NCBI GenBank assembly: GCA_010405405.1 | Contig: MU004242.1 | Coordinates: 717,751-781,750 of the forward strand | DNA: 64,000 nucleotides | Origin: Microthyrium microscopicum | Lineage: Eukaryota | Direction: 5' to 3' | Shown: one piece after another, positions 13,993 through 63,390 of the stretch | Layout of the letters: the number at the start of each line of letters is the position of its first letter | How positions within the stretch are numbered: the stretch's first letter is position 1 | Translations under genes and position numbers: made by a program | The notes under the pieces: generated by a model | Database searches by the model: none | Told to the model about the DNA's origin: nothing | What the model saw: only the letters and a program-made list of their open reading frames with translations

Positions 13993-14680
13993 ATGCCCAA
14001 AGAAGAGACTCCAGATGGTCTTCCTAGCTACCAGGAGACCATGAGCACACCGAGCGGCCATTCTCTAATGCAACAAACGCTTGGGGCTCGATCACAGCAC
14101 ATCCACCACATCACCTTAAGCCTGATACTACCAATACTTTCTCGGCGAGCTTCAAGAGGCCTTTCAAAAACAACGATAGCCATGGTTCCAGCACGGAGAT
14201 CCGGTAATTTATCCAGTACAAAGCAACTTGACAGTCTGTCCTATCTTTTTTACATCTCGCCGTACTATCGTAACAAAATACTGATATCTAAGTACAGATC
14301 GGAAAGAAAAGATGGAGATGGTAGGGCTGGCAGATTCCGACGAGTCGTACGAAGAGGTAGTACTTGAGGAGGAGATGGATACGCAAGAGTTTTGGGAACA
14401 ACCTGAGGCGTTGAGCGATTTGAGAAAGCTATTGAAGACTAGTATTGCCTCGTCAAATTGGTATGAGCAAGAAGAAGAATTGCCTGTGAGGCCGGTACAA
14501 AAGATTTCGAAAGGCTTTTTCGGGAAGAAGTCTCAACCAGTGACGGCGAGTCCGAAACGTCCGCAGGTTACCGTCGAAGTTGGGCATGAGGATATGTCAT
14601 ATCGTATTGAAAATTCTTTTGGCTTGTATGATACCATCGCAAAGCCGGCGATTGTGGTGAGGGTCAACACGAGGGCATAG
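13993..14680 (+). CDS. Hypothetical protein, 2 exons
   Basis: MPKEETPDGLPSYQET.. joins through intron 14204-14297 (GTAATT..TACAG) in frame to ..DRKEKMEMVG..YRIENSFGLYDT..IVVRV. Confidence 0.7.
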
Positions 14681-14837: not shown

Positions 14838-16719
14838 TTAATAGAACCATCTGAATTCTGGCGAGGCCGGACCATTGCGCAACTTTTCAGTAGGAATATC
14901 TCGCACACTCAACGGTCCTGTCTTTCGGTCTCTTCTCTTATTGTCGAATATCATGTAAGAGCCAAGAATGATAGTCAATATTGCCCCCATACCTCCGAAA
15001 GCTGCGGTAGTTGCTAGAGCCGGAATGTATTTTGGTGCGTCCTTGGAGGTCATGTTAGCAAATCTTCTCAACCCGATTTCAAGCCTCTCATGCTACAGAG
15101 CAGAGAACTCACTTTGTTTTGAAAGATATTTGACGAAAGCACTCCCATCAAATTAGCCATGGGCACACCGACTGATGTTAGGACTAGCCGCTTTCCTTCA
15201 TGGGCAATATTGTTGTTGTACCAGACATCAAGAAGTACACTGGGAGCTGAAGTTCCCCTGAAAAAGTCAGTTTTGTCTTTCAGAGTTCAGAGCAACGTAC
15301 CAAGTCATCATGAATGTCGCAAAGTACGCAACATGAAGCTCGTCGAGCACGTCGATCGAAACATATATACAGAATCCAATGAAAGTGAATATGAATCCCA
15401 GAGCAATAAACGGAAATCTCAAGCGGGTATAATCGCTTGCAAAGGCTAGAACCAGCAGCATCACTGCTCCAGAAACATTCGGCGCGACTGTGTACAGATT
15501 CGTTTTGACTGGTGTGTATTTGAGTCTTGAAATGATTTGAGGAAGGAAGAGTTGCACTGATTGAAGTGGTACTCCCAGGCAAATCTCGATCGCGATGATG
15601 AGCCAGCTTGTCCAATGTTTGAAGATACTGATGGATTCTTTGAAGTTGAACTTTTCGTTGACCACACTGGAGCTGTCGATTTGCATTCGGTAGAACGCAA
15701 GTTTCTTTTCAGACTCTGATAAGAAAGTGGCATCTGCTGCACTATGTGGGAGATACCAAAAGGCGAAAATACTGAAAAGAGTTGTACAGGTTCCTTCGAT
15801 AATGAAGAGATATCTCCAACTGCTTAATGGTGCATTTTTGATCTGGAAAGTGCCAAAGGCCAAAAGTCCACCGAACGCAGATGCGATAGATTGAGCAGCA
15901 TAGAATAAGGCTAATCGTCTAGCTAGCTCACCTCGACGATAAAAGCTACAGACAGGTTAGTAGAGCAACGGGTGGACAAAATAATTGGCGTGCCCCAATC
16001 AAGTCGAATGGCTCCCACCAACGCTTCCAAACAGCAAGTACTATCAATCCCATCACAATCAATCGATAGTGGTGGAATAAACATAGTCCTTGGGAAATAA
16101 AGCACTCGATAGCAAAGCGTGGCAGATGGAAGCCATAGAAGTCAGTGGGGTCCGCCAGTTATTTTGTCCTTTGGTTGTAGTGCTTCAGCATGAATATATT
16201 AGGGACTTACGTTGTTTGATAGTAGATGACCAGAGGAAAGAAGGCCGATTCAGACATTCCAAGAAACCAGCGTAGAGTCATAAGTCCTCCAAAGTTCTTA
16301 ACGGCAGTTACAAGTAACGTAAGACAACCAAAGCAGAACATCATACAAGGTAGAACTTTATTAGGTCCGTACTTCTTCCCTAGTATTCCCAGGAATGGGG
16401 CTGTCAAGACGTATGGGATGAAGAATATACTGAGGATCAGATTGTACTGGCCATCTTTGAGGTGCAGGTCCTTTTCCAGTCCAGCTGTTTTGGCGTTTCC
16501 TAGATTCGATTTATCCAGAGAATTGAACAGATACATTACTGCCAAAACAGGCAAAATGCGCAAGTCGAATTTCCAAACGAGTATTCGCTCCGCCTTTGGG
16601 TCCATAATCATCTCTGTCTCTCCATCCTCGCCGATCACAGCCTGGGTTCCATCTTCTTTGATCTCGATAGCCTTGGAATGACTTCGGAGGGGGTCCTCAC
16701 CCTTCAAATCCAGAGACAT
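14838..16719 (-). CDS. MFS transporter, allantoate permease/TNA1-like (ACS family), 4 exons
   Basis: KFDLRILPVLAVMYLFNSLDKSNLGNAKT, RWFLGMSES, YQTT|FYRRGELARR, WRYLFIIEG. Introns 15946-16210, 15258-15300 and 15042-15112 restore the frame. Confidence 0.92.
15946..16210 (-). other. 265-nt structured (fold-back) intron, member of the ~54-bp-unit intron family
   Basis: GTAAGT..CTAAC..TAG boundaries. 16/17-bp inverted repeat 15974-15990 / 16153-16169 plus further nested stems. Carries the ATGGCTTCCATC..CGCT..ATCGAGTGCTTTATTTCCC unit. Confidence 0.8.
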
Positions 16720-17487: not shown

Positions 17488-18596
17488 TCACCATGGAAGC
17501 TGAAGAGGAATTGGAAGCTTGTCCTTTGGTCCGATGGTATCCTCAGCAGTTCCAATGTCTGCAGCGCCCCTTGGAGCCCAGTACGTTCCTGTTTTGGAGA
17601 TATCAAAAGTCTCAATCCAATCAATCAAAGATTTTGCAGCGACATCAGGTGTCACAGCTATTTCGAATCAGCCAACACGTACCCAGATAGATAAAGAGAG
17701 TGGACGAGGTCAACGGCATGGCAAAATAAAGGGTGTACTCCAACAACTCTGATGGCTACCACCAGCGCTGCTAACCAAGGTGCTTTACTTCCCATCGTAT
17801 CTAATAAATGCTCCCAGCCCGAGAGCCCTTGATGGGAAGTAAGGCACTCGACAACAGAGCGTAGCGTCTGGGCACCATCAGAGTTGATGGGAGTATGCCA
17901 TTTATTTCGACATGCAGTTGGAGGTATTGCAGATTAACTTACCTCCTCCTTCATCCCAAAACTTATCAAATCCCACCCCCTTGGTCATTTCAGTCCGCAT
18001 GAAGCCTGGATGAACCGAAACCACAGCGATACCTTGCTCTTTCATGTCCAAACTGAGCAGCTTGTTGACCATGTTTAACGCCGCCTTGCTCGCATGATGA
18101 CCATAATTGCCACCACCCTCCGATTCATGCCTCAACGTGATGCTGCCACTCTCTGAGCTGACCAGAATGACCTTTGAATCTTTTGCAAGTAAACCCGCTT
18201 TGACTAGCTTTTGGACTAGAAAGACAGGGCCAATAGCTGAGGTTGTGTACATTGTGACCTGTGCTGAATGTTAGAATTAGAGAATTCTGGTTCGACCATT
18301 TTGACAACCTGCGCATCCCAGTCGGGCTTGTCAAAAGTCTCCAAGCCAAAGAAGCCAGCGGTAACAATAAGTGTGTCGATGGAGCCTTTGATATCATTGA
18401 GACCTTTGATAACCTCGTCGCCTGCAGCAGGTGTACCGATATCGACACCAGTGATCCATTTGATGCTTGGGTCGCTATCTTTGGGAGCTGCTTTGCGACC
18501 TGTGCCGAAGACTGTATTCGAGCTGTCCTTGACGTATTGTTCGGCCAGTGATCTCCCAAGGCCGCGGGTTGCGCCGACGATTGCGATGTTTGGCAT
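17488..18596 (-). CDS. Short-chain dehydrogenase/reductase (C-factor/CsgA-like), 3 exons
   Basis: IAIVGATRGLG Rossmann motif, GHHASKAALN, VHPGFMRTEMT. Introns 18259-18308 and 17658-17942 give a last exon AVTPDVAAKSL..YWAPRG..LQLPW*. Confidence 0.9.
17658..17942 (-). other. 285-nt structured (fold-back) intron, member of the ~54-bp-unit intron family
   Basis: GTAAGT..CTGAT..TAG. Inverted repeats 17744-17755 / 17875-17886 (12/12) and 17780-17796 / 17831-17847 (16/17). Confidence 0.8.
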
Positions 18597-26750: not shown

Positions 26751-29700
26751 ATGCATGGCCCGCCGATAAACCTCGAGTCTCTCGACCTCATTACCTTCCT
26801 ACGAGTTCTCCCTGCCGCCTATAACTTTAGATACACTGAAGCCGTCCACAATGTCATCCTACAGAAGCTCTTCATAAGCTGCATTGGCCCCACCGGTAAG
26901 TGCCAAATCACATTTCTTGACGATATTGGATGAAATACAATACATCTCATCGCCACTGCATTCGATGGTTACCATAGAATGCGCTCCTAGTCCAGTGCTA
27001 TGGATCCCACCGAATGCGGCGGGCGGCTCAGGCGTGTTGGCTCTGATCATAATCTGTTACTAACAACTTCCAGGACAATACAGCACTCTCTTCTTCCCTA
27101 ACAATACTCCTCCATTCGACCCTGACGTCAAATGGTCTCTTCGCGAAGCTCAGGGCGCTATAGAAGGCGCCGAGTATACAGAAGCTGCCCGCGGTACTGC
27201 TTGCGGCCATATATTTCGACCGGGCGAGGCGAGTTATCAATGCCGCACATGTTCTAGCGATCCAACATGTGTGCTTTGCGCGCGCTGTTTCGATGCCAGC
27301 GACCACGATGGACACCCTGTTTATATTCACGCTAGTGATGGGAATTCAGGATGCTGCGATTGTGGCGATTCAGAGGCCTGGAATCGGCCAGTACACTGCG
27401 GCATTCATTCTGAAGACGAAAGTGCACATGGTCATAAAGACAAGGCAAAGGTATCTGAGCTACCGGCGGAGTTGCTTGAGACTATACGTCAGACTATTTC
27501 AAAGTCACTAGACTATATGTGTGATGTGTGGAGCTGTTCGCCAGAGCAGCTCAGAGCCAACAAGTCCAAAGATAGCATTTTGGAAGATGAGTGCCTATCA
27601 AGACTGGCCAGTGAAGTTTACGGAGGCCCGGACTTGGCTGTACAACAATCTGGCCAAGAAGTTGAGTACGCATTGGTACTTTGGAATGACGAAAAACACA
27701 CCGTGCAAGATGTCAGAGACGCTGTGGCAAGAGCATGTCGTGTTAGCAGCGCAGAAGGGCGGACTCGAGCCGATGAAATTGACAGAGTTGGCCGTACCGT
27801 TGTCAAGTACTCCAAAGACATTAGCGAACTGCTCCGAGCGGCTGTAATCCTGGAACAACCCAAACTCTCAGTCACCATTCGGTCCTCGCGAGACATATTT
27901 CGCGAACAGATGTGCGGTTCTATTGTCGAGTGGATTCTCGATGTCTCCGGTTGCGCTGTTGGCTCAGACGGCAAAATACTTAAGCAAATCATATGCGAGG
28001 AGCTCATGAAAGAATGGCGAGTCGGCAGCTTTGCTCATCACAAGATGGTGGGCCAAGATGGCATCTACGATCATGACAAGGAGGAGGTTCAGAAAGATCT
28101 TCAAGAGAACCTGGGTCCGTATAGTACTGGTTTGATCCAGAGACTCCAACATGCCTGGGGTGCCGCAGCTGATGTGCAAGATGATTCAGTAGACGACGAT
28201 ACTGTAGAGGATCATCCGCAAGATGCCAACGACGCCATGGATATAGACACCCCATTCATCCCCTCAAGTTCTCATGATGTAAATGATAACATGTCAGCAA
28301 GCGGCGTTGGTGAGACATCTGAAGGTCAAAACACTCCTGCCGCGAGCCAGAGTTCCGAAGGCGCTGCTCGTTCCAATAATGATTTCATGTTAGAAGAAGC
28401 TGACAGCAACGATGCCTTGCTGACCATACCTCGGACTCCTGCTGCAAGGGTTAAGAAGACCCCGAAGCCACCGAGTTATTGGCGAGATATGCCAGCAGGC
28501 TGTTACGCTCCTGGCCTCACTTCACCTGAAGAAAATCTTCGGAGAAGAGTTCGATTAGATTGGCTCATTCTGTATGACCTGAGAATGTGGAAACAACTTC
28601 GCATCGACCTTCGAGAAGTCTTCATAACGACACTTATCACCATCCCCAAATTCAAGAGGCTTCTTGCACTGAGATTTGCTAGCGTCTTCACAGTGCTTGC
28701 CGAGCTACACCTCATCGCTGATCGCGAGCCAGATCATTCCCTCATCTTCTTATCTCTCCAACTCCTTACCGTTCCCTCCATTACTACTGAAGTTATCGAG
28801 AGAGGAAACTTCCTTACCAACCTAATGGCCATAATCTATACTTTCCTCTCAACTCGTCAAGTTGGCTATCCCCATCAAGTTGATCTCTCTGCTACTCTGG
28901 CTATCGACCAAGGAGTTGTGTTCAATCGCAGAGCGCAAACGTTCTACCACGATATGCGTCATATGCTTTCCTTGGAGATCGTTCGTGAACGAATACGAAT
29001 TGAGCCTCGGTACCTCCTTCAATTCCTTGATATCGCCAAGATCCACCAAGGGATATGCCCCAATGTGCGAGCTGTTGGCGAACACTTGGAATATGAAATG
29101 GAAGCTTGGATGAGTCTGTCAACAGTGATGACAGAGGTCATGAGGCTCTGTCGTTCCTTTGCAGAATCGTACTACATCCAAAATGAGGATCACTCTCCAA
29201 ACTTGCAAGGCGCTCTACGAACCGCAGCAGGTGTCGCAATCATTAATTCGCTGGGTTGCGAATTGTCACGCTTTGAGCAAGGAGAGATCAAACAACTGGT
29301 GCAATTTCATAGCCTGGGACCATTCGAATTTGACCATCAACATGCACCGCCATACTGGACAGTTCGATACAAGGTTGCCGAAGAACCTATGAGCTGCTAT
29401 CATCCGCTACACTATATCCTGTCCTGGCTGCTAAGCGAAGCACGATCAGAGAGCGCCGACTATATCAAAGGCTTGCTACACTTTTCGGAAAGTGATCTTC
29501 AACCAATGATTACATCCAAATCTACATACAAAAAACTCAAGGACGTTGGCGATATTCCCGGCAACTATCTCTTGGCCATGTTCGATCTTCCCATCCGTGT
29601 TTGCGCCTGGTTGGCACAAACTCGCGCTGGAATGTGGGTACGAAATGGTCTCTCGTTGAGGCATCAGATTCAGCAGTATAAGAGTGCTAGCCGAAGAGAG

Positions 29701-32700
29701 CTTACATACCAACGAGACATCTTTTTGGTCCAAACAGCTTTCGTCATTTGCGAGCCAGGAACTGTTTTGGCTACCTTGGTCGACCGCTTTGATCTGTTAG
29801 ATTGGGCACAAGGCAATTACGAACCACATCCGGCACGAGATGAGGCGCAGACTATCGACGTTGCCGAGGAGTTCATTCATCTTCTCATTGTTATCCTATG
29901 TGACCGACTAAACCTTATCGTTGGTGATCGCGAAAAGCTTGCCGAGACCATGACCAAACGGGAGCTCATCCACGCTCTCTGCTATAAGCCTCTTTCGTAC
30001 GCCGAGCTAAAGAAATATCTGACTGAGCGTGTGAAGGAAGCCGACGATCAAGGCATTCTCCAAGAGTTGACTGCCTACAAACCTCCCGAGGGTATGACAG
30101 ATCATGGCACATTCACACTGAAAGATCAATATTTTGAAGAGATTGACCCATACTTGTCATATTTGACCCGCAATCAGCGCGAAGAGGCCGAAACAGCTTA
30201 CCGGAAACATTTTGCAAAGAAACTCGGCAAGGATGTGTCCGAAATCGTGTATGAGCCTAATATCGTGCCGATCGAGTCTGGTTTGTTCAAGGACATTCAC
30301 CAATTTACAAGAACGCCACTGTTCGCACAGGTCATCTTTTACTTCATTCAGTATGCTATGATGGCGCCAAACTTTGCACCCGATGTGCAGGCGACTAAGA
30401 TCGAGCAACTCTTCCAGTTCGTTCTACAGCTTACACTTGTGGCTATTGTCTTGGACGACTCTACGGAGTTTGTGGAGGAGTTCGATGTGGTCATGGATGT
30501 TGATGATCCTTCTGGAGAACTGAATGCGCCGCCAAAATACCTTAGCTTCTGCAAAATGATGTTGGAGAAGAAAGCGACCAAAGTTGTCTCAAACGACACT
30601 ATCGCGAGTGCTCTTCGACGAAGTATGGAACTGGACCATTTGAAATCTTGTGCGCCACGCGTCAAGGCGATCTTCCAGCATCTCCAGGAGAAACGACCAG
30701 ATGATTTCCGTACTTGGATGACGAACCTTAACCTTCCAATGGATGTGTTTGGCCAATCGACCCAAGCCAATGATGCAGCTGCCAAAGAAATAAAGAAGAA
30801 GCAGGCTCTCGAGCGACAGGCCAAAGTGATGGCACAATTTAAACAACAACAAGCTTCATTTTTGGAAAACCAATCTCTGGACTGGGGCGAAGATTTTGAA
30901 GATCTTGATGATGATGAGATGACCGTTACTGCGCATGAAAAGGTGACTCGTTTTCCATCCGGCTCTTGCATTCTTTGTCAGGAAGAGACAGACGACAATA
31001 GACTTTATGGTACTTTTGGATTCATCAGCGAGAGTCGAATGTTTCGAGACACTCCCATTCGTGATGCAGACTGGGTTAACGAAGTACTCGATACACCTGA
31101 AAGTCTCGATCACGAGTGCGTTGAGCGTCCATTCGGAGTTGCCTCCAAAAACCGCCGTGTCATTCGCAAGACGGGAACTGACGGCAAAGTCATTGAACTC
31201 GAACGACAGGATCTAGCCAAAGGATTTCCAAACACATATATCTCTCCGAATCCGGTGAGTGTGGGCTGTGGCCATATCATGCACTATACTTGCTATGAGG
31301 TCTATGTGGCTGCGACTGCGAGGCGCCATCAGCAGCAAATTGCTCGGCATCATCCAGAGACTATTGAACGGCACGAATTCTTGTGTCCACTGTGCAAAGC
31401 GCTTGGCAATACGTTCTTGCCAATTATCTGGAAGCCGCAACCTCTACAGTATCCTGGCGCATTAGCTGGTCCTGAGGAGGACTTGGAGACGATGATTGCA
31501 GGAGTGACTGGCCAACTCAACGATTCTTCGTACTTGCAGCACGCTGAGACTGCGCTCAAGAGCTACGCAGAAAGCAATTTCGTGCCTGGATTGGCTGCGC
31601 AGGTTCAACCTAGTTTGATGGAGCTCAAGAATAAAAGAAGTCAGATTCCTCCACCGATACCAGGATTCCCAGGCCGTATCATGGACTTTGACAACCCGGT
31701 GGAGAGTTTGAGCAATATTTTGAGTCGACAAGATAGTCTCTCGTTCTCAGCTGCTAGCACGCCAATTGAGTCTCCACGGATATCAGGTGCCCTCAACGTA
31801 TCAGAACTGCGAAGAGTATACGACACACTAGAAGCCGCACTCAAACTTGCAGATCTCCAATATCCGAACAGCTACAGTACCAGCGAATGGGACGAATTTG
31901 GCGCTCTGATCTCTGCACTTTCCGGATCGATAAAAGCAGCTGAGATCGCCCAACGTGGTGCCGCTTCGCCCAATTTGGACGCCACCTTCATTGAGAAGAT
32001 TAGCTCCCAATCTCTTATGCATCTGAGAGTGCTGAGCGAGACTATCATGTCATTCCTTGCAGTCAATCTCATGAGCAACTCTACCAACAGCGACTCTAGC
32101 CACAATTCCAGCCAGTTCGAACTCGAGAGCCGTCTTGAACGACATATGGGAAGTCTGTTCCTACATTCTAATGATATCGAGGGCGCATTCTCGAGGTTTC
32201 CGGCGTTACTTGCGCAAGATCCATTCGCTGTCTTCACGGAACTCACGCTTTGCCCTGTGCCGGATTTTGATCTCAAGTTCCACATGAAGCTTTTCTATAT
32301 GGCCGAGATTGTAAGGGTTATCGTGTCTTTCTCAACCAAGACCGATGAAGACCCTGATATCAACGACGAAATCCTCAGCATCCGAACACGCCCCAGCGAG
32401 CCAGCCCCTCCCGCCTTCCTAGAACTCGTCAAACTCATCGGCGAGCACCTCCACGGTGGCCTAGGTAGTTACGTATCCTCCCAAGCCCTCTGGATGCTCT
32501 GCCGAAAATACGCCCTCCCCTTTGTCCGCAATTCCGCCATTCTCGTACATATCCGCTACGGCATCGACTTTCCTATCCCCACCACACCTTCTTCCCTATC
32601 TGAACTCGCACGCCTGTCCACACTTCTAGATCTACCCTCCCTATCAGATCTAGTCTCCGAGTTCATTACTTCCCCTTCTGCGCGGGTGATGGGTACGAAG

Positions 32701-33548
32701 TGGGCGCAGCATTACACCGAGCAAGACGACATTATAAATCTCGCTCATCCTGCTATCTTTGAACTCGTAGGCTTGCCGAAGAACTTTGATACATTGCAGG
32801 ATGAAGTTATGAGACGGAAATGTCCTGCTACTGGACGCGCGCTCTGGGATCCGGCGATCTGTCTACTTTGCGGCGAGATTTTCTGCTCACAGAGCCAGTG
32901 TTGTACGAAACCAGCGACTGATGGGCATGGGAACACTGGGAGAAAGGTTGGTGGTTGCTGGCAACATCGTGTCAAGTAAGTTTCCCTCAAAACCCCCTTT
33001 GCCCACACCATCCAACCGCTCGACAAAAAATAAGTGGACGCGCTCCCATCAAGTGCGGTGTCTACCATCTGCTGCGCTTTGGCACCGGTGCTCTATTCCC
33101 CTTGCCAATGATTATATACCGTTGGATTATCCTTCGAGTACGCTGGGTGATAAGGCATTTTCTCGTTATGAAATGCGATGGTAGACACCGTTGTCGATGG
33201 GAGTGCGCCATCATTTACGCCCCTCATTCCCATCCTTTCCCTCCTATCCTATCCTTGTTTCTTTACTAACAATCTCACAGATGCGGCGGCAAAGTCGGCA
33301 TTTTCCTACATATCCGCAAATGCACAATACTGTACCTGCATGAAGGCAGCGGCTCATTCACCGTCGCTCCCTATCTTGACAAATTCGGCGAGGCAGATCC
33401 CAGCTTGAGGAGCAATTTGCAGCTCTTTTTGAATCAGAAGAGATATGATAGTATTTTTAGGTCTGCGTGGCTGATGAGCCAAATTCCGAGTGTCATTGCG
33501 AGACGGTTGGAGGGGGAGATTAGCACAGGGGGATGGGAGACTTTATAA
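26751..33548 (+). CDS. UBR1: N-end rule E3 ubiquitin ligase UBR1, 3 exons
   Basis: UBR box (CGHIFRPGE..C..C..CDCGD..C..H), ClpS-like WNDEKHT segment, WVRNG, RING (CILCQE..CGHIMH..CPLCK), C-terminal YLDKFGEAD..GWETL*. Introns 26896-27073 and 32976-33280. Confidence 0.95.
26896..27073 (+). other. 178-nt UBR1 intron 1, member of the ~54-bp-unit intron family
   Basis: GTAAGT..CTAAC..CAG. Unit GCCACTGCATTCGATGGTTACCATAGAATGCGCT..CAGTGCTATGGATCCCACC with a 54-bp period (26952/27006). Confidence 0.8.
32976..33280 (+). other. 305-nt structured (fold-back) last intron of UBR1, member of the same family
   Basis: GTAAGT..CTAAC..CAG. Perfect 14-bp inverted repeat 33056-33069 / 33177-33190, extended by 33040-33050 / 33196-33206. 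Confidence 0.8.
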
Positions 33549-51848: not shown

Positions 51849-54363
51849 ATGTTTATGGTCAATCGCCGTATGTATACTCTGACCCAGTTACTCTTCCCGA
51901 AACTGACACTCTGTCTAGTCGGCAAGTTCCTCTTTGGGGATGGCTCAAAGGAATCCCTCATAGAAATACCTGACGGCCAACTTTACGTTGTTCGCCCACT
52001 CTCCCTCAAAGGCTATTCCGAGCTTATCTACAAAGACGCCAAAGCTTCCATTCGTCGCACTGGAGTCGAGTTCCAATATCAGCTAGTGATAACCCGCATA
52101 TACGAAGAAGGAGAGGAAGAGCTACTTGACGAAGACAGCGCTGACGAAGCTGGTCTTGATGAGCTGAACAAAGACGAGCAGTCTTTCTTGCTAGATCAGG
52201 CTTTAGAGTTCCGCGTCGACATTCGAGACACTGGTGAAAAGGTTTTCGCCTGGCGCGATTTAAGCGGCGCAAAGGAAGACTTATGGGAATTTGTCTGTGA
52301 CACTTCGACTAGACCTGAGACAGTCGAGACATTCGAAATCGCCGCCATTCGCTGTCAATTCGAGCGCAAATACAAGCGCAACTCGGATACTGCCACAGAA
52401 ACTGAACTTCAAGAATTCCATTTCGCAGAACAACCTATACCTTCCGCCAGTCCTATCCTCAAACCATCATCCGCCTCTCCTACAATATCTCCTTCACACA
52501 CCTCCACACGACTACAGGCTGACGCCACTGAAGCAGACGGAAGCATGTCCTCTAAATCACCAGCTGGAAGAGGGGTCGGCGCAAGCTCTTCTCAAGCTGC
52601 TCCCCAGCCCGTAGCTCATCCTGAGGGTCGCGAGACCTATACTCGTGAAGCGGGTGAGCTGCATCTGTTTGACATCGATACTGGTACATTTGTCCTACAA
52701 GACAATGCGGTCGAAGCTGTAGTCATGGACTTGGGCAGTTGGAACTACTGGCTCAAAATCACTGGACAAAGCCGAAATTGGCTCGGTCGCATGATTGAAG
52801 ACGATATCAACCCCGTTTTCAACTTTGAATACCTTTCTGCAATCTTCAACGTTTATGGCGCAGATCATTCAGCCTATTCATGGCTTCTTCGGTTCAAAGA
52901 TCGAGAAGTTCTGGAAAAGTTCCAGCAAGGTCTTATGCAAGCGCTATGGGAACACAACAATCAGGTAAAATGGGCCAAGCTCAAAGACAACGACCAGGAT
53001 TACATCCTAGAAGCGTTCAACGACATGACAATGGAAGATGTTGAAGAAGAGCCTGAGGAAGAAATTGAAGAGAGTGATGAGGCAGAAGAGGAGCGACCTC
53101 GTCACCGCTCCGAGGAGTATGATTCTGATGAATCGCAAGATGATACGGAACAGCAAAAGAAGGACGGAAACGTCAACTCACAGCTTGCAATTGGTCAACG
53201 CCATAATCGAGCCTTTGTTGTGCGTGGTTCGAATATTGGTGTATTCAAGAACGACGACGATGGGCACAATCTCTCATTCGTCACCAATATTCAAAAGGTT
53301 GCCACTCCAAAGGGCAAACTATTCTCGCCAAAGAAGGTCATGTTGCATGCTGGTGACGCAAATCTGATCATGCAAAGCGAGGACAATCCCAACGGAGTTT
53401 ATCGCATGGATTTGGAGACTGGAAAGGTTGTCGATGAGTGGAAGGTGCACGATGATATTGCAATCAATACCTTTGCTCCAGAAACCGTAAGTCTTTCAAT
53501 ATGAAAACACGAAACCACTTTTACTAACAATTATCCAGAAATTCGCCCAAATGACCGACCAGCAAACTTTCCTCGGTGCATCCAAGAACGCCATGTATCG
53601 CGTCGACCCCCGTCTAGGCGGCAACAAGCTCGTCGACACCGACCTAAAGCAATACGCCTCCAAAACCGGCTTCACCACTGTCGGCACCACCGAGCAAGGC
53701 TACATCGCCGTCGGTTCCGAAAAAGGCGACATCCGTCTCTATGACCGTCTCGGCATCAATGCCAAAACCAACCTCCCTGGCCTCGGTGATGCCATCATCG
53801 GCATCGACGTCTCCGCCGACGGCCGCTGGGTTCTCGCGACCGCCAAAACCTACCTCCTCCTCGTCGACACACAACAAAAAGACGGCAAATTCGAAGGCCG
53901 TCTTGGCTTCGAACGTTCCTTCCCAAAAGAAAGCAAGCCCGAGCCCCGCCGCCTCGCTCTGACTCCCGCACATGTAGCGCAATTCATGCACGAAACAAAA
54001 GCACCCATCAATTTCACGCCAGCGAAATTCAACACGGGCCCAAATCTTGAGGAAACTACCATTGTCACCGCCACCGGTCCCTTCGTCATTTCCTGGTCTC
54101 TCAAGAAGATCGTAAAGGGTCAGCGTAATCCTTACAGCATCAAGCGCTATACCGACGAAGTCAAGGCGGATAACTTCCGCTTCAACAGCGATAAGGGCAT
54201 TATTGTGGCTTTGCCGAATGAGGTCGATGTGGTTATGAAGAAGGCGCTTAAGGCACCCACGCGAGAGAGCATTGCGGCACCACGATTGAGTGCTGCTGGG
54301 AGACGGAGTGGTGCGCGGAGAAGCGGGTATTTGGGGAGAGATGATATTGTTAAGAACTACTAA
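51849..54363 (+). CDS. VID27: Vacuolar import and degradation protein 27, 3 exons
   Basis: MFMVNR|LGKFLFG..GQLYVVRP..FQYQLVI..EEGEEEL; NSQLAIG..FVVRGS; DLETGKVVDEW; GDIRLYDRLG.NAKT. Introns 51868-51918 and 53487-53538. Confidence 0.92.
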
Positions 54364-54959
54364 GAAAGATTGAATGGTTTGGTTGGGCTGAGTGAGATTC
54401 GTGTGCAGATTGACTTGGTGGACGCTTGTTGTTGTTGCGTCCGTAGTCTCGCTGGATAGAATGTGTTGCTGTTTTCTTGTTATATTTCTGCGTTGTTGAA
54501 CGGCCCTATTTTGTGTTTTATGTTCATGATGGGAAGGGTGTTTGTTTTGAAAGTATCTTTGGCGTATTTGATTTGACGAGCGTCGATAGTCTCCGCTGCA
54601 GTTGTTAGGATCGGTTTTGGGTTTGCTTGGGCACTGGTGGATTTGATGTCTATGCGTCTAAGAATCCAGTTCTTGATGTGTGGATTTGATGAAGGATGCG
54701 GGATATGAATCAGTAGAAGGAAAGTATGGTAGATAGCTACATGAACTCTTCAGTATGTTAGGAAGTTAGGAACGACATTGCATCCCTTTTCTAAATCATT
54801 GATCGAATTTCATCTTAAGACGCGCAAGTCTATTCTACAAGTCGACTCGAGGAGTATTTCCAACCTCAATATGCAATGACTTGCTTCCTTCACCAAACAA
54901 TACCTGTGTCTTGGTTCCCACTTTAGCATGGCAACCAGATCTCCACCTCAGATGCCCCA

Positions 54960-55187
54960 TTACATCCTGCTCATCGCTTCGGCAGCTGCTGACTTCGCCA
55001 TCGCAGCTTCGTATTCAATTTCGCAATCTCGACAAGGCTCGGTTTTGAGATGGATATGGTCATGAGGAACGCAGTAGATCTGGTGAACTACACAGAACAC
55101 CGGCTTTCCCTGTTCCCGTTTCCTGCAGTTTCCCTTGTATTTCTTTGGGCAATGGTGTTTCGTTGTTCCTACTCTCCCGTGTGGCAT
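54960..55187 (-). CDS. Small Cys/His-rich basic protein (possible zinc-binding)
   Basis: 75-aa ORF starting at ATG: HHC..C..FCVVHQIYC..H.H.HLKTEPCRDC. Confidence 0.5.
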   Translation of the reverse strand: MPHGRVGTTKHHCPKKYKGNCRKREQGKPVFCVVHQIYCVPHDHIHLKTEPCRDCEIEYEAAMAKSAAAEAMSRM

Positions 55188-55521
55188 TGTGATATGATGC
55201 CTGGATTGGCGCAGAAAGGTCTTGAGTGTAGAAAGTGCGTGATGATTGGTATGGATGGCTGTATGTTTGCGAATAATAAACTCAACATAGCTGGTATGTA
55301 TGCTAGAAAGCTTATTAGTACATATTCTGAAAGATGGTGTTGCTCATATTCACAGCAAGTAGCCAAATGACCTATATCTATTAGCTATTGACCAGCCAGT
55401 GTTGCAATTTTGTGGCTGCGCCTTCCCTGACTTATAGCAAGCAGTCAAAGGGTCCATGATATAAGTGACAGATCGTAATAGAGTCTATACCGCTTGAGAA
55501 GTTCCAGTGTCAATGTGTGCA

Positions 55522-55600
55522 TCTCCCATCGGATGCGCTGGGAATTAAAGCATCTTTTCGTTGACAAGTGCGATGGTGGCCATCGCAGTCGATGGGAGCT
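55522..55600 (-). repeat. Stand-alone copy of the ~54-bp intron-family unit
   Basis: The minus strand reads GCTCCCATCGACTGCGATGGCCACCATCGCACTT..GATGCTTTAATTCCCAGCGCATCCGATGGGAG, with a 54-bp period (55596/55542). Confidence 0.7.
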
Positions 55601-56510
55601 GATCAGTTGTTGGGCTCACTGGAAGGGCAGTGTCATTGTTAATCACATTGGCTCAAGAGCCATATTATCAATTGAAATCTTGAAAGATACCCTGCTCAAA
55701 TACAGAAATTTGCAAAGCTCTCGTGTGGAGGAATCGCCAGGCACAAGCAGTATGTCGGCTGGGAGCTTTTCAGGACCAGGAGAAAATACTCGCTTTCACC
55801 ACTATGCAATAAAGTCATAACAGGCCCACCGTGATCTAGGATTTGTGACATCAGATGTTGTTACTTCTACTTGACGCTCAGTATCCGTAGCCATCACATC
55901 GTCGCGAATAATCACCCTTATCGAAAATGGCATTCCTGTGCACCCCGATCCATTCTCAAACTGCAGCAAGCTGGAGTTACAGCCGAAGCGAATAGTGTGA
56001 CGGCTACCTGAAAGGTTATGTACATTGTCAATAAGACAAAACTTGAAGTTTCTTCAGCCTTACATTTGTGTCATAAGGCTGAAGTGAAGCCTTACCTATT
56101 TTGATTTAGCTCAGCCTTGACTCGCTCTTTCCTTAAATTCTCCCACCATATACCTTCTTATCACCTAGGTATTTCTTTCGTAACGGTATGTAAAAGTCAT
56201 CGCCCAGAAACTTAATGTTCTTCGCTACTGTCAATAGCCACGGAAGACCAATTTTTGAGAATTGTTACCATTGACTAGCAATTCAGCGCGCAACAGGTCA
56301 AAAAGCAAACGGTCAGTGTCACCAACCGAAGGGATCTGTCACCAGAAAGATAAAGTGGGGTAGGAAGACAAAGTTCTATCATTTATTGTACAAGCGCCGA
56401 CTCACAGATATCAAAAACTTCATCCCTTCCTTATTTCCAGCAATCATCTACTGCCGCCGTAGTGTAGATGCTTAAAGCCTCCTGCAACAAATCGATCCCG
56501 AAGCGACATC

Positions 56511-57803
56511 ATGGCCGAAAAGGAGCAAGCGATGAGATCTCACGAGAATTCTATGGACTTGGCCTCCTTAAGTCTAAGGCCCAATATTGAGTCCCCCCCA
56601 CCAAGTCCCACAGGTTCAGCTGTTTCGGAATCCTCAACGGTGGAGTGGAACCACGTACCTTTCACCGATTTCCAAGCGCAAGTTCTTGAGCTTGGCCTCG
56701 AAATTCTCAATGACTCAACTAGAAGTTCGATCGAGATTGAACGGCTAAGAGGTGGAGGTGAGAACCGAGTAATTGGACTAAAACTCACAAAGCCTGCAAC
56801 ATTCCAGCAACCTTCGGTGGTAGACAATTACGTTCTTCGAATCCCTCGCCGAATTTGCGATGCCGATTTCCCACATACCATGGCCCAATTGGATTTTGCT
56901 GCACGAGTGAGCAGTATTCCAGTTCCAAAGACAATCAAGGTGGAATGTTCAAAAGAGAATCCTATTCAGAGTCCTTACCTTTTGCAAGAGCGTATCCCAG
57001 GTCAATCTCTGCTGGACGCTTGGCCAGATTTCAATCTCTCACAAAAGCTGTCCGTGACTCGACAGATCGCAACCTTGTTCCAGTCGATTCGAGCCTTCCC
57101 AGTTTCACGTGGAGGCATTCCGGATCCAAAAAAAGAACTATTACCTTGGCCGCATCAACCTCCTATACTCCGATATCCTCAATGCAACTCTTCAGGCGAA
57201 TCTCTGACTGGACCAGCATCTACGGCGTTATTCCAGAGTCCAACGGACATGTTGCAATCACGGTTGGATGTTTGGATGGAGAGAGATATCAAACATAGAA
57301 AGCCACTTTGGGAAATGCTCTCCCAAGGCTTCAAAAATCTCAACGCCACCACCGGTCTTTTCGAAAGCGAGTTTTATTGGTACCACGGAGACTTCCAGCC
57401 TCGGAATCTTCTCGTAGCAGTCATCAGCGAGGAGGAAGTCAAGATTACCGGTGTGCTAGACTGGGACAACAGCCATTTCGCCCCTGCGGTTGTAGCGTTT
57501 GAGCCGCCTTGTTGGCTGTGGATGCAAGATTACTGGAAGGATGCTAGTGACCCAACACCTGATGGCACGGAATGGTACATGACCGAGGCGATGCTCTGTG
57601 AAAAAGCTGGTTTGATACCTACGAACGATGACGACAAACAGATCAAAGAATGCTTTGAAGAATATTTGCAATCGCCTTATGTGCTGAAGTTTGCGTATGC
57701 CAACCATGCGGTTGATGCGAGAAGACTGTACAAAATGGTGCTTGATGGGCTCACGGATCAAGACGTTGGGGAGGTCGCAGTGAAAATCTGCGAACGTCAC
57801 TGA
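56511..57803 (+). CDS. Aminoglycoside phosphotransferase / choline kinase-like protein
   Basis: GGGENRVIG, YVLRIPR, IPVP, PYLLQERIPG, HGDFQPRNLL (Brenner motif), ITGVLDWD. Confidence 0.85.
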   Translation: MAEKEQAMRSHENSMDLASLSLRPNIESPPPSPTGSAVSESSTVEWNHVPFTDFQAQVLELGLEILNDSTRSSIEIERLRGGGENRVIGLKLTKPATFQQPSVVDNYVLRIPRRICDADFPHTMAQLDFAARVSSIPVPKTIKVECSKENPIQSPYLLQERIPGQSLLDAWPDFNLSQKLSVTRQIATLFQSIRAFPVSRGGIPDPKKELLPWPHQPPILRYPQCNSSGESLTGPASTALFQSPTDMLQSRLDVWMERDIKHRKPLWEMLSQGFKNLNATTGLFESEFYWYHGDFQPRNLLVAVISEEEVKITGVLDWDNSHFAPAVVAFEPPCWLWMQDYWKDASDPTPDGTEWYMTEAMLCEKAGLIPTNDDDKQIKECFEEYLQSPYVLKFAYANHAVDARRLYKMVLDGLTDQDVGEVAVKICERH

Positions 57804-57998
57804 CTTTCTGTCTGTTTAAGTCTGTTTGGAGGCTCGTTTACCCTGCTAACGGAAGCGATTGTAGTCGAAAAGGTTGAATATATAATCCTGAGAGTTCAAT
57901 AGTGTAGCAGAAATTATCAAATTGTGTCTAACTCAACTGGCTTGAGATCAACAGCTTCCAATAATACTCATACTCATATACCTTCAACCACGGTCATC

Positions 57999-59293
57999 AT
58001 GAACTCAAATCACATCAAAGACCACGAAATGCAAGCTACCGCGGCTGGTCCGCAAGATGTAGTGTTATTCACACTAGGTCAGGGGATATCAGCAACCTCA
58101 GCTCACTTCATGACATGGTAATTACCCTGAATCAGAGCAGTTCTGACGAAATCCAAAAACAACATATCTCCCATCGCACTCGATGGCTCCCATAAAACCT
58201 GTTCTTGTTCGAGTGCTGTGGGTCCCATCAGATGCGATGGCACCCATAACACTTGAACATTATTTTGACCGGGCAAGGCTAAACAGTCCTTTCAACGTGT
58301 TGTCCAAAATAATGATCTTATACTAAAACATTTTAGGTAAGCCTTTTCTAGATTATACCATATTTCTTGACAACATTCAACAAAATCAAAAACAGCGTTG
58401 CTCCCATCGCATTCGATGGCTACCATATGATGCGCTTGTGATCGAGTGCTATAATTCCCACCGCACTCGATGGCTTCCATCAGAAAGCACTTTTATAATC
58501 TCTACTGACCAATTCCAGGGATGCCATATACAATGACAGGGACGAATCTCGCCGGTACAAAATCCAGAGCTCGTGCAATGTAAGCCTAAAAGATGGAGCC
58601 ATTGAATTCAAGGCTGGCACTGCGTTCACGAAAGAATCTCTGTATTCCAAACAAAAGAAACACGGGTTCTTGCAGACGGGCCCCCCCGGACGGCACGCAT
58701 GGCTCATTTGCGTGGGTATAGAAGGAGGCCCCATGAACGGACCGGAGCCACCGAGGATAGATCTTGAGCTGAGACTTGTGAGTGTCTAAGCAAAGAGCAC
58801 TCTCTTCTTCATGTACTAACTCTTCTAGGAACCAGGCGATGACAAATGGCGCCGCGCAGGCAGCAATCTCATCACCTATAAGTCCATAACCAAGGCGTTC
58901 TGTCACGAAACAAAGCTACGAAAGCTCCTGGAGGTCACAAATTTTATGGATGGCGAATTATTTGTGATGCCAATCAAAGGTCCGATCGAGATTCCTGACA
59001 ATGGCTTGCTTGAGTTCCAAGTACACAATCGAGGCTTCGTGTCCAGGGGTTTGAGAGGACAGCATGTCGGCCGTGGACCAGTGATAGTGCGATGTGTTGT
59101 CAATGACGACCTGCCAGGTACTTATGAGTTGTTGCATGAGCATCTCAAACTTGGGGGATGGCATTTCGAAAGTTGGGGTAGCGGAGAGACTTTTGGGGAG
59201 CCCATTGTCATTGATACAAGGAGCTCATATGGTCCTAAAGTCCCCAAATCTGTCAGATTTGTACCACAATCAGGGGCAAGTGGTAGTGGATGA
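57999..59293 (+). CDS. Hypothetical protein, 3 coding exons (57999-58117, 58519-58777, ~58829-59293)
   Basis: Exon 1 ..HFMT-TG|GTAATT; after CTGAC..CAG at 58518 the frame stays open (WDAIYNDRDESRRYKIQSSC..LELRL). A short GTGAGT..CTAAC..TAG intron then joins in frame to the 58946-59293 ORF. Confidence 0.65.
58118..58518 (+). other. Two abutting introns (58118-58336 and 58337-58518), each carrying tandem ~54-bp family units
   Basis: GTAATT...TACTAAAACATTTTAG|GTAAGC...CTGACCAATTCCAG; units at 58170/58224 and 58403/58457. Confidence 0.65.
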
Positions 59294-59510
59294 ATACCAG
59301 GGTACTAAAGAGCGTCTCGGAGTTTTTTCTTGATGGAATTTGTCTGAATCTGTTTAAACTGTGTGATTTATCTTGATGCATAGGGCAGTAAGTACTTAAC
59401 TTAACAAAAAAATATAAAATTGGTGTCAGAGTCGATTTTCGTCTGCGCAGAAGATATTGTGAAGTATAAGGCTGAGGCTCCGTCTATGCTTTACACTAAC
59501 CCCTTTCGTC

Positions 59511-61193
59511 CTAGCCACCAGCCTCAATCCCCAACTCCAACTTCTCAAATCTCATCAACAACGAACTCACCACCAATAATGCACCACCCGCCATAGCAGG
59601 CGCAAACATCTTGCGGATTGTCTCTGCAACCGCCACTGTCGCGATCTGTATGACTTTATCGTTGGCCGACGCGAACATCGGCGACAGCCGGCCTGCCAAT
59701 GCAGACCGAATATACTCATCAGGGAAGTCATATCCCGCAAATGCGCTCTTGAGCTCGCGAAATCCCTGATTTTGAAAGAGCGATCCTGCAATGGCGAGCG
59801 AGATGGACGTCGCGCCCAATTGGGACAGGTTGATGAAGCCCAGCGCTTTTGACGAATCTTTCGGCGAGACTTTCGCAACGGCGATGGCGTAGGCGTTTTG
59901 CCAGACTAGCCCTGTGCCGGCTGCCACGAGAATCTCGTAGCCGTAGATGTTTCCGCCAAGCGTGCTGGTGTTGATGGTATGTAGTAGTGATGTGCCAATC
60001 AGGATCAGTGAGCCGCCAGCTAGGTAGTAGAGGTTGTAGCGTCCAACGATGGGCAGCGTGGCGCCAGCCAACATCACGAAGAAGATAAAAATACAAATGA
60101 ACGGTAACAGACGGATGGCGGCGCGTATGGCCGAGTCGCCTTTGGTGAATTGAAAGAATAGTGGGATGTAGTAGAGCGTGATACTTTGAGCCGCTGCACC
60201 GCTACTGGTAGCGGTGAAGAGTAAGACCAGAGTCCGGGATTTGAGGAAATGCACGGGAAAGTTGCGGTCATTGGTGAAGATAGAAAAGGCTTGCTGGACG
60301 ATGAACGCGATGAAACAGGCGCCGAATACCACCCAGAGAGCGATAGATCCTCTTGAGTCCCAGGCGTACGTCGAGCCACTGAAGCAGAGAGCAACAATGA
60401 AGAGCACGAAAGCTGCGGCGTATAGTGTCGCCCCGAGCCAGTCGATACTTGCGAGCTTAGTCTTAATGCTGAGATCTGGTCGCGGATTCCTTCCTGGGAA
60501 GAAAAAGATGTACGATGGGAAAAACAGACCCGCGATAGGAAGATTGATGTAAAAGGCCTAAACATTCAAGTCAGTCCAAAACCAAAGCGAGTTGTCAAAA
60601 CTAATACGTACCCAACGCCAAGTCGCACCACTCCCAGCAAACAGTCCACCCACCACTGGCCCAAGAATAGACCCAACACCCCAACTAAGCCCAATCAGGG
60701 CATTATATAATGGCGTCTCCGCCGGAGTCGTAAAAGCGGTAATATAGGTCAACGCCCCCAGATACATTCCCGCTCCACCAACTCCAGCAACAACTCGTCC
60801 TATAACCAACGTATTCGACGTTGGTGCAGCACCGCAAATGGCACTACCGACTTCAAACAGGGTCAAGCTGCATATAATCAACCATTTGACGTTAAAGAGC
60901 CCATATCCGCGCGAAAAAAGGAGGATAGTTGCGGCGGAGGCCATGGGGAAACCGATACCAATCCATTGTAGATTCTCGATGTCGCCTAGGTCTTCGTAGA
61001 CTGGCCCTTGCACGTCGGCAGCGACGGTTGTATCGAGGCCGTAGAGGATGGCGCCGAGATAGAGGATGATACAGATCAGGATCCATTTCCAGGTTGGGAT
61101 GTTGGCGCGGGGGTGCGAAGGAATTGGAGTGTTATCCAGTTCTGTGATGTTGTCATCGGCTTCGCTTGAGGGGGCGGAAGGAGGTTTTTCCAT
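59511..61193 (-). CDS. MFS drug:H+ antiporter (DHA2, 14-TM efflux pump), 2 exons
   Basis: LDTTVAAD, LFEVGSAICGAAP..GRVVAGVGGAG, LGPVVGG, TWRW|AFYINLP across intron 60558-60611, YYIPLFFQF. Confidence 0.92.
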
Positions 61194-61493
61194 TGCGGAA
61201 GAAGGCAAAGGTAAGAAAAATGGGACGATGATCGATAGGTGATGAATGGTTTGTTCTCTACATTCTAGGTATGGGAAAACTGGATCTATTTAACAAGACT
61301 TGTTAACGACATATTGCTATTCTCTCAACTTCGAAACTTTAGGAGTCAAGGACAATTAGTGAGCAACCATGATTCGCGCCTTCAAAGTCAACTTGCCATT
61401 AATCCTTACTTATCCATCAATATTCTTTACTGCGAGCCGCGCCTCATTGGAGTCTTGATTCTCCTGGAGACCTTCAGGATTGCTGCAAGAGAC

Positions 61494-61918
61494 TTAGTAA
61501 GTCGCTCCTTTGAGGCTGAGATTTGACAACCACCAAACTATTTTATTGGCCAGCTGGCGTTCGAATCCGATAGCATACTCCGGAGGTCCTAGTAACGCGG
61601 ATCATAGCCTAGTCATGCTTCTGAGGAGCGTTAGTAGCGCCGTTCTGCTAACGCGTGTCGGAGAGAGTTAGTAACGCTTCCCGGTAATTCGGCCCAAATG
61701 CATCAGTAACAAACTCGAGTTGGACAAAATAAGTATTCGCCATAGTATCAAGATTTGATCAGATTTCATAATCTTGATCTATAACTTAAGGCAATCTCAT
61801 AATATGAGCAACTGACAGTCGGGGTAGTGGACGCTGGCATCGCGGATCAGTAATCTTTTCAAGCCCGTGGCTTTATCACCCATTGCTTCTTCCCAAGAGA
61901 CACAAAGGTGCTACTAAG
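61494..61918. promoter_or_regulatory. Cluster of Yap/AP-1-like TTAGTAA sites in the divergent MFS/bZIP promoter
   Basis: TTAGTAA at 61494 and 61668; near matches CTAGTAA 61589, TTAGTAG 61631, TCAGTAA 61703 and 61847, CTACTAA 61911. Confidence 0.5.
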
Positions 61919-61999
61919 TCCCGCAAAAATTGTTCTGGGCTCCTTTCATAACACAGAGTTTAGATTTCAAGTGTCAAAGATCTGCTTTACATCGCAATA

Positions 62000-63390
62000 A
62001 TGGTTTCTGATGCGGGAAAGCACCAATCGCAGAAGCACAAACCAAAACGCAAGATCTCAGAGCTAGATGAAGCCGCAGCAAGGGTGAGCCAATCACACTT
62101 TGAAATGAGAAAGATACTAATGTTCTTTCCAGCGAAGACGAACTCAAACATGCGAAGCTCAACGCGCTTTCAGAAAACGCAACAAGGAAACCATAACATC
62201 ACTGACACTGCAAAATTCTGATCTTCAAAAGACAATTGAAGACTTGAGCGCCTGCTTTCTTAGCTTTACGGATGATTTAGTTGCCTCAGGATGGCTGGAG
62301 CAAGATCGCATAGTGGCGAAGAAACTGCAAGCAACGATTGAGCAATTCATTGCTATTACGAGGGCATCTCAATCTCCGATCACAGAGAATCCAGCAGGTG
62401 ATGAACATTTCGAATCCCCAGGGACAACGGACTCGTCACCGGCAGAGTTCATTCAAGATTTGGCCACACCATCCCCTCTTAAAGAGCCGCTTCCCACCGC
62501 GACTGGCATCGATATGAGTTCAACTCAGATGATACTTCCAAACCCACAGGAGACCTTAAGCCGCAAATATACAACCTCAACCACCGAATCAAGAAACATG
62601 CTCACTCAGACGTTACCAAGAGCCACGATATTCTCTTCACTCAACGTACCACCAAGCCCGCAAAGTTATCCCCGTGGCCCTATGCCAACTCACAATCCGC
62701 TACTAGACTATCTCCCGCGCATCCCTCGATCAATCAACTTCTTCAAACCCAGCTTCGCCCAAAAGCTACAGCTAGAAGCCATACGTGCCGGCCTACGACT
62801 CGTCAGTACAGCAGAAGACAACTCTTCCCTCTTCTACCGAACGTTTAACCGAATCCTAGACCTCCCTACGCGGGAGACCTTCCGTTCACGACTCTATCAA
62901 GCTTTGGACGATAACAAATCGCTTCATCCACCGCCTGAAAATGCCTCATGGTCAGAGTCAGAATCGTTCGCATGGTTGAATGCTTCGGATGTAGCCCGGC
63001 ACTTTCGCTCGATTGGCATAGATATTGACTCGTCGCTGGATATCGTTGAGATGGTCCAGATGGAATCGGGCTACTGGCAGGGATTTGCTACTTTCTCTGG
63101 AAATGAACAACCATACGACATGAGAGCTTTATATCATGCGAATGAACTGGATGAATATGCCATAAATCCTGCTTATAACAATAATGGAGGCTACACAGGG
63201 TCTTCTGTGACTGTCGATTTGTCCAAGTTGATACATGGTGAGTATTTTTTGTTGTTCAATAGTCAATAGTCAAGATTTGGCTAATGCAAAATCCGAAGAA
63301 ATTATACAAAGGACACGATGTCATGCCGAGTATCCAACGTTCAATAGGCATGATCTTAATGCTGCGCTCACGAGAGCCATGGTTGCATAA
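62000..63390 (+). CDS. bZIP transcription factor (Yap-like basic region), 3 exons
   Basis: Intron 62084-62132 joins ..EAAAR|RRRTQTCEAQRAFRKRNKETITSLTLQNSDLQKTIEDL (basic region plus zipper). A second intron (GTGAGT at about 63238) gives a last exon EIIQRTRCH..AALTRAMVA*. Confidence 0.8.

Follow-up and report, generated by a model that had tools for sequence, protein, structure and literature searches.

A gap of 401 nucleotides (nt) between putative coding exons of an orphan gene of Microthyrium microscopicum appears to be a composite of two complete copies of one family of introner-like elements (ILEs), placed head to tail with an exon of zero length between them, and stepwise clearing of the two copies from the transcript is expected to dominate. 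This reading as a whole is given a probability of about 0.6. The gap is located on the plus strand at positions 58118-58518 of the stretch analysed, 64,000 nt of contig MU004242.1 (assembly GCA_010405405.1), hereafter referred to as the window, and consists of a first intron of 219 nt (I1) and a second of 182 nt (I2). For the structural part of the reading, in which two introns of the family meet at a zero-length exon, the features of the sequence give good support:

58118..58336, plus strand: I1, putative ILE-family intron, 219 nt, donor GTAATT at 58118, acceptor TTTTAG ending at 58336
58337..58518, plus strand: I2, putative ILE-family intron, 182 nt, donor GTAAGC, acceptor TTCCAG
58336..58337, plus strand: putative zero-length exon, AG|GT joint (TAG|GTAAGC), where homologous ends of the two elements meet; the motif is rare in the window

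The exon between the two introns is of zero length because the I1 acceptor directly abuts the I2 donor, the boundary being TTTTAG|GTAAGC at 58336|58337. A branch-like TACTAAA is found in I1 at 58321-58327, 10 nt from its end; positions 58321-58336 read TACTAAAACATTTTAG, and GTAAGC follows directly from 58337. In I2, the branch motif TACTGAC at 58503-58509 also lies 10 nt from the intron end, with the CAG ending at 58518 (58503-58518 read TACTGACCAATTCCAG). Re-reading of the sequence showed that the donors, branch motifs, acceptors, and frame given for 58118..58518 in an earlier note on this DNA were all correctly placed. Each intron contains two palindromic boxes of ∼26 nt, of the type CTCCCATCGCACTCGATGGCTCCCAT, which start at 58170 and 58224 in I1 and at 58403 and 58457 in I2 and span about 58168-58193 and 58222-58247, and 58401-58426 and 58455-58480, respectively. 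The earlier note had described paired units of 54 bp; a pair is indeed present in each intron, and the figure of 54 is the spacing of the box starts and not the length of the boxes. The 17-mer core of the box occurs six times in the window at up to three mismatches, as against 0.08 expected, and none of 100 shuffles reached six. A direct repeat of 99 nt with 72% identity is common to I1 and I2. Predicted RNA folding was more stable than that of shuffled sequences for the whole pair (z-score −4.87), for I1 (−4.05), and for I2 (−2.46), with 4 of 200 shuffles equally stable in the case of I2.

The completeness of the two elements was evaluated against I27k (26896-27073), which served as a stand-alone reference for the element ends. 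The first 50 nt of I1 and of I27k aligned with 35 matches in 45 aligned positions and the last 45 nt of both with 31 in 43, while the first 60 nt of I2 matched the first 50 nt of I27k at 37 of 50 positions and the last 30 nt of both matched at 21 of 29; not one of 500 shuffles was as good in any of these four comparisons. Since the ends of I1 and I2 align with those of I27k, both are complete from donor to acceptor, and since both halves are complete, the internal AG|GT represents the true joint of the 3′ end of one copy with the 5′ end of the next. Homology to the ends of I27k on both sides excludes the AG|GT as a chance motif within a long intron. The motif YAGGTAAGY occurs twice on both strands of the 64 kb (1.62 expected), which scales to ∼0.005 expected on one strand of a given 401-nt stretch; owing to this rarity, its presence by chance inside such a stretch is unlikely. 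The view of the earlier note that two complete family introns stand head to tail, with a zero-length exon between them, is borne out by these alignments with the ends of a stand-alone intron.

The window has the character of filamentous ascomycete DNA, and the gap interrupts a gene model whose product corresponds in part to P0001, a public protein of 262 amino acids carrying the name Microthyrium microscopicum:

57999..58117, plus strand: putative exon 1, 39 codons and 2 nt, from the ATG at 57999 to ...ACA TG, the first part of a split Trp codon
58519..58777, plus strand: exon 2, a G completing the Trp codon and 86 codons (DAIYND...LELRL), with contigs over 58396-58649 and 58663-58777
58778..58828, plus strand: ordinary intron, 51 nt, GTGAGT...CTAAC...TAG, with a GT..AG joint from 58777 to 58829 in a contig of run X1
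58829..59293, plus strand: exon 3, 154 codons and a stop, 100% identical to residues 109-262 of P0001

When both halves of the gap are removed, TG and G58519 form TGG (Trp), followed by DAIYND. The frame of exon 2 is open from 58499 and contains no ATG in its first ∼72 codons, so that an upstream coding exon is needed. Among all GT dinucleotides between 57810 and 58500, those joining an ATG-started frame to exon 2 were 58064 (GTTATT), 58118 (GTAATT), and four poor sites within the elements. Of the frames opened by an ATG, exon 1 as given above alone runs to a reasonable donor that fits exon 2, and 58118 is also the donor position of the family itself. The strong donor at 58337 is not one of these sites, and a protein can accordingly be made only if both elements are removed.

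Removal of the pair could proceed by three routes. I1 would be excised first in a 5′-to-3′ recursive manner, recreating ATG|GTAAGC, with I2 following; I2 would be excised first and then I1; or the entire gap would be excised in a single step from 58118 to 58518 via the I2 branch. All three would yield the same mRNA. Stepwise removal is expected to dominate because fungal spliceosomes pair sites across short introns and because the I2 donor is the better match to U1. In its context TAG|GTAAGC, this donor pairs with U1 over AG|GTAAG, which is longer than the G|GTAA of the outer donor, ATG|GTAATT. The excision of I1 would be the slower step owing to its weak GTAATT donor and CTAAA branch. The earlier note had considered two-step excision to be required. 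This does not hold: the donor at 58118 and the branch and acceptor of I2 are a legal pair giving the same in-frame junction and the same mRNA, so that excision in two steps is possible but not obligatory.

It is unlikely that the gap behaves as a single 401-nt intron, spliced in one step from 58118 to 58518 via the I2 branch, with the internal AG|GT and the branch and acceptor of I1 left as unused relics of its origin. The outer sites would suffice for such an event without a change of frame, and the splice signals of I1 are the weakest in the family. Pairing between I1 and I2 is predicted for the arms 58225-58240/58404-58419 (88% complementary) and 58209-58222/58457-58470 (93%), and a stem of the minimum free energy structure (58298-58321/58352-58375) loops out the internal joint; such pairing could, in the modelled fold, join the outer sites and hide the inner ones. 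The better U1 match of the I2 donor than of the outer one argues against single-step removal. So do precedents in fungi: in the nested introns of Hypoxylon, nearer sites were used stepwise far more than distal sites (PMC9024468), and introns of 375 and 336 nt with a joint of this kind have been shown to be spliced recursively (10.1101/224170; 10.1101/226894).

The sole RNA-type run available at the locus, X1, consists of contigs marked "RNA?" (29 million letters) and was compared with positions 54000-62000. Its RNA nature is a guess of the tool; two joints of the GT..AG type and several empty intergenic bins fit RNA. The GT..AG joint from 58777 to 58829 confirms the 51-nt intron on the plus strand, and a CT..AC joint from 59233 to 59297 marks a 63-nt intron in a transcript of the minus strand. 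Contig record 4 (254 nt, depth 4.7, no mismatches) follows the genome without a break over 58396-58649 and is therefore unspliced across the I2 acceptor at 58518|58519. Among the X1 pieces listed, no joint from 58117 to 58519, 58063 to 58519, 58117 to 58337, or 58336 to 58519 was found, which is not evidence either way; none of these pieces covers 57927-58395, the internal joint included, and contigs cannot show rare intermediates. The summed depth of X1 was high over 58005-58538, with loose ends at 58402, 58403, 58452, and 58484, and was read as contigs of other family copies. The loose ends were also considered as a sign of closer relatives of I1 and I2 elsewhere; this was dropped, as the underlying pieces are not displayed.

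Several observations weigh against the proposed composite and its splicing, beginning with the uncertain RNA nature of X1 just mentioned. The depth of record 4 is no lower than that of the spliced contig joining exons 2 and 3 (2.64); the record counts against efficient splicing in the X1 sample and shows retention, and it is silent on the internal joint. The I1 donor departs from the consensus in lacking a G at position +5, and the last base of the I1 branch motif is A where the consensus has a pyrimidine. In the public model P0001, exon 1 ends at 58063, and ...PQDVV is joined to DAIYND from the GTTATT donor at 58064. (This donor is very weak and lies 54 nt upstream of the family donor; the resulting protein has 18 residues fewer than the model of the earlier note.) A search with exon 3 against 1.84 billion representatives returned only P0001 and a weak match to a repeat protein, the homologue search with P0001 in a set of 5.8 billion sequences returned only the protein itself (1 of 366 candidates at 144-459 amino acids), no Pfam family was detected in any exon, and the ESM Atlas model has a mean predicted local distance difference test score (pLDDT) of 0.33. 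As the host gene is an orphan with no Pfam family and a poor predicted fold, the reading-frame argument rests on an unproven gene. A eukaryote-wide screen lists Microthyrium microscopicum with no introners (PMC9860276, Supplementary Table 4). The weight of the case is further limited in that it concerns a single locus in an orphan gene with splicing that is predicted. Overall, the pair is confirmed, the mechanistic claims of obligatory two-step excision and of insertion at the boundary go beyond what the sequence shows, and the sole RNA-like evidence shows retention.

A still less probable alternative is that the pair is not spliced as modelled: the elements would lie in a retained or untranslated leader or in the region upstream of a shorter transcript, or the orphan gene would not be a real protein gene, and the zero-length exon would have no role. 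Consistent with this are the unspliced contig over 58518|58519, at a depth equal to or above that of the downstream exons, the orphan status and poor predicted fold of the host gene, and the X1 contig of the upstream gene, which reaches 57926 and leaves just 72 nt before the ATG at 57999. A family copy is also present in non-coding DNA at 55.5 kb, and membership of the family is therefore no proof of intron function. On the other side, both elements are sense-oriented with complete signals, and the intron that follows in this transcript is removed in frame. The exon 2 frame remains open over ∼72 codons without an ATG, for which the chance is ∼0.03 by (61/64)^72, and it is in phase with an ATG frame whose end coincides exactly with the donor of the element.

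A stwintron, in which an internal intron lies within a splice signal of an external one, with overlap at a shared G (5′-AGT) and an obligatory order of excision (PMC9024468), is ruled out, as was stated in the earlier note for the [D1,2] and [A2,3] types, because the AG|GT joint leaves both introns intact without overlap, and TG+G with DAIYND after it would result whichever intron is removed first, and from distal splicing as well. The pair does share features with the [D1,2] stwintrons of the Hypoxylaceae, which likewise comprise two U2-type introns, repeated members, inverted-repeat symmetry, and seamless integration (PMC8469720; PMC9024468). In those stwintrons, the order is forced and distal splicing shifts the frame, whereas here neither intron is interrupted, any order would work, and distal splicing would be in frame.

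The family to which I1 and I2 belong is dispersed over the window. A profile built from I1, I2, and I27k matched 55461-55617 (E 1.2e-08), 16091-16176 (E 3.2e-05), and 17829-17907 (E 2e-04) in an nhmmer search of the window; the match at 33026-33097 was weak with the profile (E 0.076) and had an E of 1e-05 with BLAST. With a profile seeded by six introns, the E-values of the seeds are circular by construction, and only the match at 55.5 kb is independent. The further members are as follows:

26896..27073, plus strand: I27k, family intron of the short form, 178 nt, host gene a UBR-box E3 ligase with zf-UBR in the downstream exon
32976..33280, plus strand: I33k, long-hairpin family intron, 305 nt, in the same UBR-box ligase gene as I27k, splitting PRT6_C
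15946..16210, minus strand: I16k, family intron of the long-hairpin form, 265 nt, host gene an MFS transporter; E 3.2e-05 with a profile that did not include I16k
17658..17942, minus strand: I17k, long-hairpin family intron, 285 nt, in a short-chain dehydrogenase (SDR) gene; found with E 2e-04 by the profile without I17k
55461..55617, minus strand: family copy of ∼157 nt (nhmmer E 1.2e-08) in a non-coding context, with no long open reading frame on either side

The intronic copies thus number six, at five sites in four genes of the window (the orphan gene, the UBR-box ligase twice, the MFS transporter, and the SDR). Profile positions 1-108 of MFS_1 lie before I16k and 115-304 after it, and positions 10-384 of PRT6_C lie before I33k and 388-450 after it; as these domains are split cleanly (108|115 and 384|388), the members are true introns of conserved genes. 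At I17k, the flanking exon frames fit, with positions 104-190 of adh_short upstream. Four copies have the donor GTAAGT, I2 has GTAAGC, and I1 has GTAATT; the branch motifs are CTAAC, CTGAC, CTGAT, or CTAAA, and the acceptors are YAG. The long forms carry one long hairpin each, and from their sequences the short forms, I1, I2, and I27k, look internally deleted. Family introns measure 178-305 nt, whereas the two non-family introns recognised from contig joints are 51 and 63 nt long, a very small comparison set. Similarity within the family is moderate, at 43-66% over whole introns and ∼72% in the cores. The 5.9-kb exon of the UBR-box/PRT6_C E3 ligase (27076-32973) is flanked by I27k and I33k, i.e., by a short and a long-hairpin form.

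The copy at 55.5 kb shows, on the minus strand, a donor-like GTGAGC upstream and a branch/acceptor-like GCTAAT..ATATAG downstream, and the RNA-like contigs have loose ends within it at 55525 and 55556. The copy may be free-standing, or it may belong to a non-coding transcript as an intron. A metagenome scan with a 19-base pattern of the box returned 66 loci, and BLAST of I1, I2, and I27k against all 66 found no family member, only three short matches of 22-75 nt with E no better than 1.6e-4.

With respect to the origin of the pair, an alignment of the family gave star-like three-way site counts for the short forms: 20 sites shared by I1 and I2, 22 by I2 and I27k, and 14 by I1 and I27k. Shared-derived counts polarised by the long forms were 2, 1, and 2 for these pairs in the same order, and the pairwise identities were 0.64, 0.66, and 0.60. 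I1 and I2 are thus no more alike than either is to a copy in another gene 31 kb away, taken over the three forms, which rules out a recent local duplication; owing to the star-like counts, a second insertion and an old in-register duplication are indistinguishable. According to the earlier note, the origin that it proposed for the pair would be direct evidence of intron mobility. It is the dispersal of the entire family that suggests mobility, and not I1 and I2 in particular.

At close to even odds, a second family copy arrived by an independent insertion that hit the boundary of a resident copy exactly, possibly through an attraction of the insertion process to splice junctions. The counts and identities above fit this origin, with I1 and I2 no closer than I2 is to the unlinked I27k, as do the alignment z-scores of 13.9 for I1-I2 and 15.2 for I2-I27k (the ends of I27k being one base off) and a segment of ∼50 nt between core and tail that is kept in I1 and missing from both I2 and I27k. 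However, an exact hit on the boundary is unlikely if targets are random, and just three short-form copies are available for comparison. Moreover, no target-site duplication was found at any of the five intron sites and no common target motif was seen, the flanks of the other four being CCG|GAC, AAC|CTT, GAG|CTG, and CAA|ATG.

Somewhat short of even odds is the possibility that one resident element was duplicated in register via G|G microhomology at the intron ends and that the two halves then diverged by substitutions and insertions or deletions. A GG dinucleotide spans both outer boundaries (58117-58118 and 58518-58519), hairpin-forming repeats are in general prone to slippage, and same-gene intron duplications are on record in fungi (PMC3609843). 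Against duplication, the cores are only 72% identical, the tails differ, and the two introns resemble each other no more than they resemble a dispersed copy; the duplication would thus have to be as old as the dispersal of the family. A more specific form of insertion, in which the phosphate at the 5′ splice site of a resident ILE was the exact entry point of a mobile ILE, with the machinery (e.g., spliceosome-mediated reverse splicing) drawn to bonds already positioned in the active site of the spliceosome, is regarded as a long shot.

Recursive splicing through zero-nucleotide exons occurs at the ratchet points of Drosophila. Like recursive sites, the present joint has an acceptor directly against a donor (AG|GTAAG) inside one annotated intron. 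In Cryptococcus neoformans, the 375-nt intron of BOT1 is spliced stepwise via a zero-nucleotide exon as 210 + 165 nt (10.1101/224170), close in size to the 219 + 182 nt found here, and a 336-nt intron of Schizosaccharomyces pombe SPNCRNA.445 is likewise recursive via a zero-nucleotide exon (10.1101/226894). Stepwise splicing was demonstrated in these two yeasts, whereas at the present locus it is predicted. The locus differs also in that its halves are recognisable copies of one repeat family, while the recursive cases of animals serve very long introns. By its sequence, the locus is one that would work like a recursive site, built from ILEs.

ILEs of fungi, reportedly described in Dothideomycetes by van der Burgt et al. 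in 2012, offer the closest comparison for the family itself. They were defined by their presence as introns in multiple copies among unrelated genes, by complete splice signals, by a greater length than that of ordinary introns, by a stable structure, and by a sequence and length that decay rapidly (PMC3609843; ILEs of Dothideomycetes are also covered in PMC4457414). The family described here shares these features, including the seamless integration without target duplications. Published copies are near-identical, whereas those of the window show the moderate similarity given above. A copy number in the hundreds across the genome is a further trait of ILEs. Transposon-type introners likewise form intron-generating repeat families containing inverted repeats (PMC9860276; PMC12130899), but these have target-site duplications and terminal inverted repeats; here, duplications are absent at the five sites, and the inverted repeats are the internal boxes. 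No description of abutting ILEs without an exon between them was found in the literature searched on introners, tandem introns, and zero-nucleotide exons, a search whose scope left outside the founding ILE papers (van der Burgt 2012, Torriani 2011).

The introner screen cited above scored the species as introner-free, as against six related introns in a single window of 64 kb here. Given its entry in that table, the family may be unreported, and the species was probably missed because the copies have diverged. The window thus reveals a diverged ILE family in a species scored introner-free by a large published screen.

The origin and spread of new spliceosomal introns and the mechanism by which ILEs multiply are still open questions. 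Zero-length-exon recursive splicing is already documented in two yeasts, where the sites were demonstrated experimentally without an account of their origin; what is new here is the origin from tandem ILEs. A pair of ILEs fused at AG|GT would be one simple way for a recursive splice site, i.e., a zero-length exon, to be born. If fused pairs were found genome-wide to be commoner than chance, junction-targeted insertion would be indicated and models of ILE mobility would be constrained. Should such targeting be true, fungi would have in tandem introners a natural supply of recursive splice sites, and the locus would record the targeting step of intron gain.

A few further features of the region were noted. 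The sole Rfam match, the C/D-box small nucleolar RNA Afu_190, was considered as an embedded RNA gene; it is full-length at 58014-58113 on the minus strand, antisense to exon 1, but its 17.3 bits fall short of the gathering score of 35 and its E is 0.83, and it was taken as chance. Structural look-alikes in the ESM Atlas reached a best score of 0.82, below the bar of 0.9, and like Pfam offered no lead to what the host protein does. Residues 10-40 of exon 3 (within 58829-59290, plus strand) resemble a repeated motif of the 592-amino-acid repeat protein P0002 (E 1.9e-10, seven matched stretches, 36% identity); the likeness probably represents a single repeat-like helix pair, or chance. The X1 contig at 58929-59587 on the minus strand, with the joint from 59233 to 59297, continues the transcript of a minus-strand MFS transporter (coding part 59511-60557) over the 3′ end of exon 3, and the two genes therefore overlap convergently. 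Positions 6001-14000 of the window form an AT-rich block with a GC content of 0.20-0.25, compared to ∼0.47 elsewhere, which looks like the repeat-degraded (repeat-induced point mutation-like) regions typical of ascomycete genomes.

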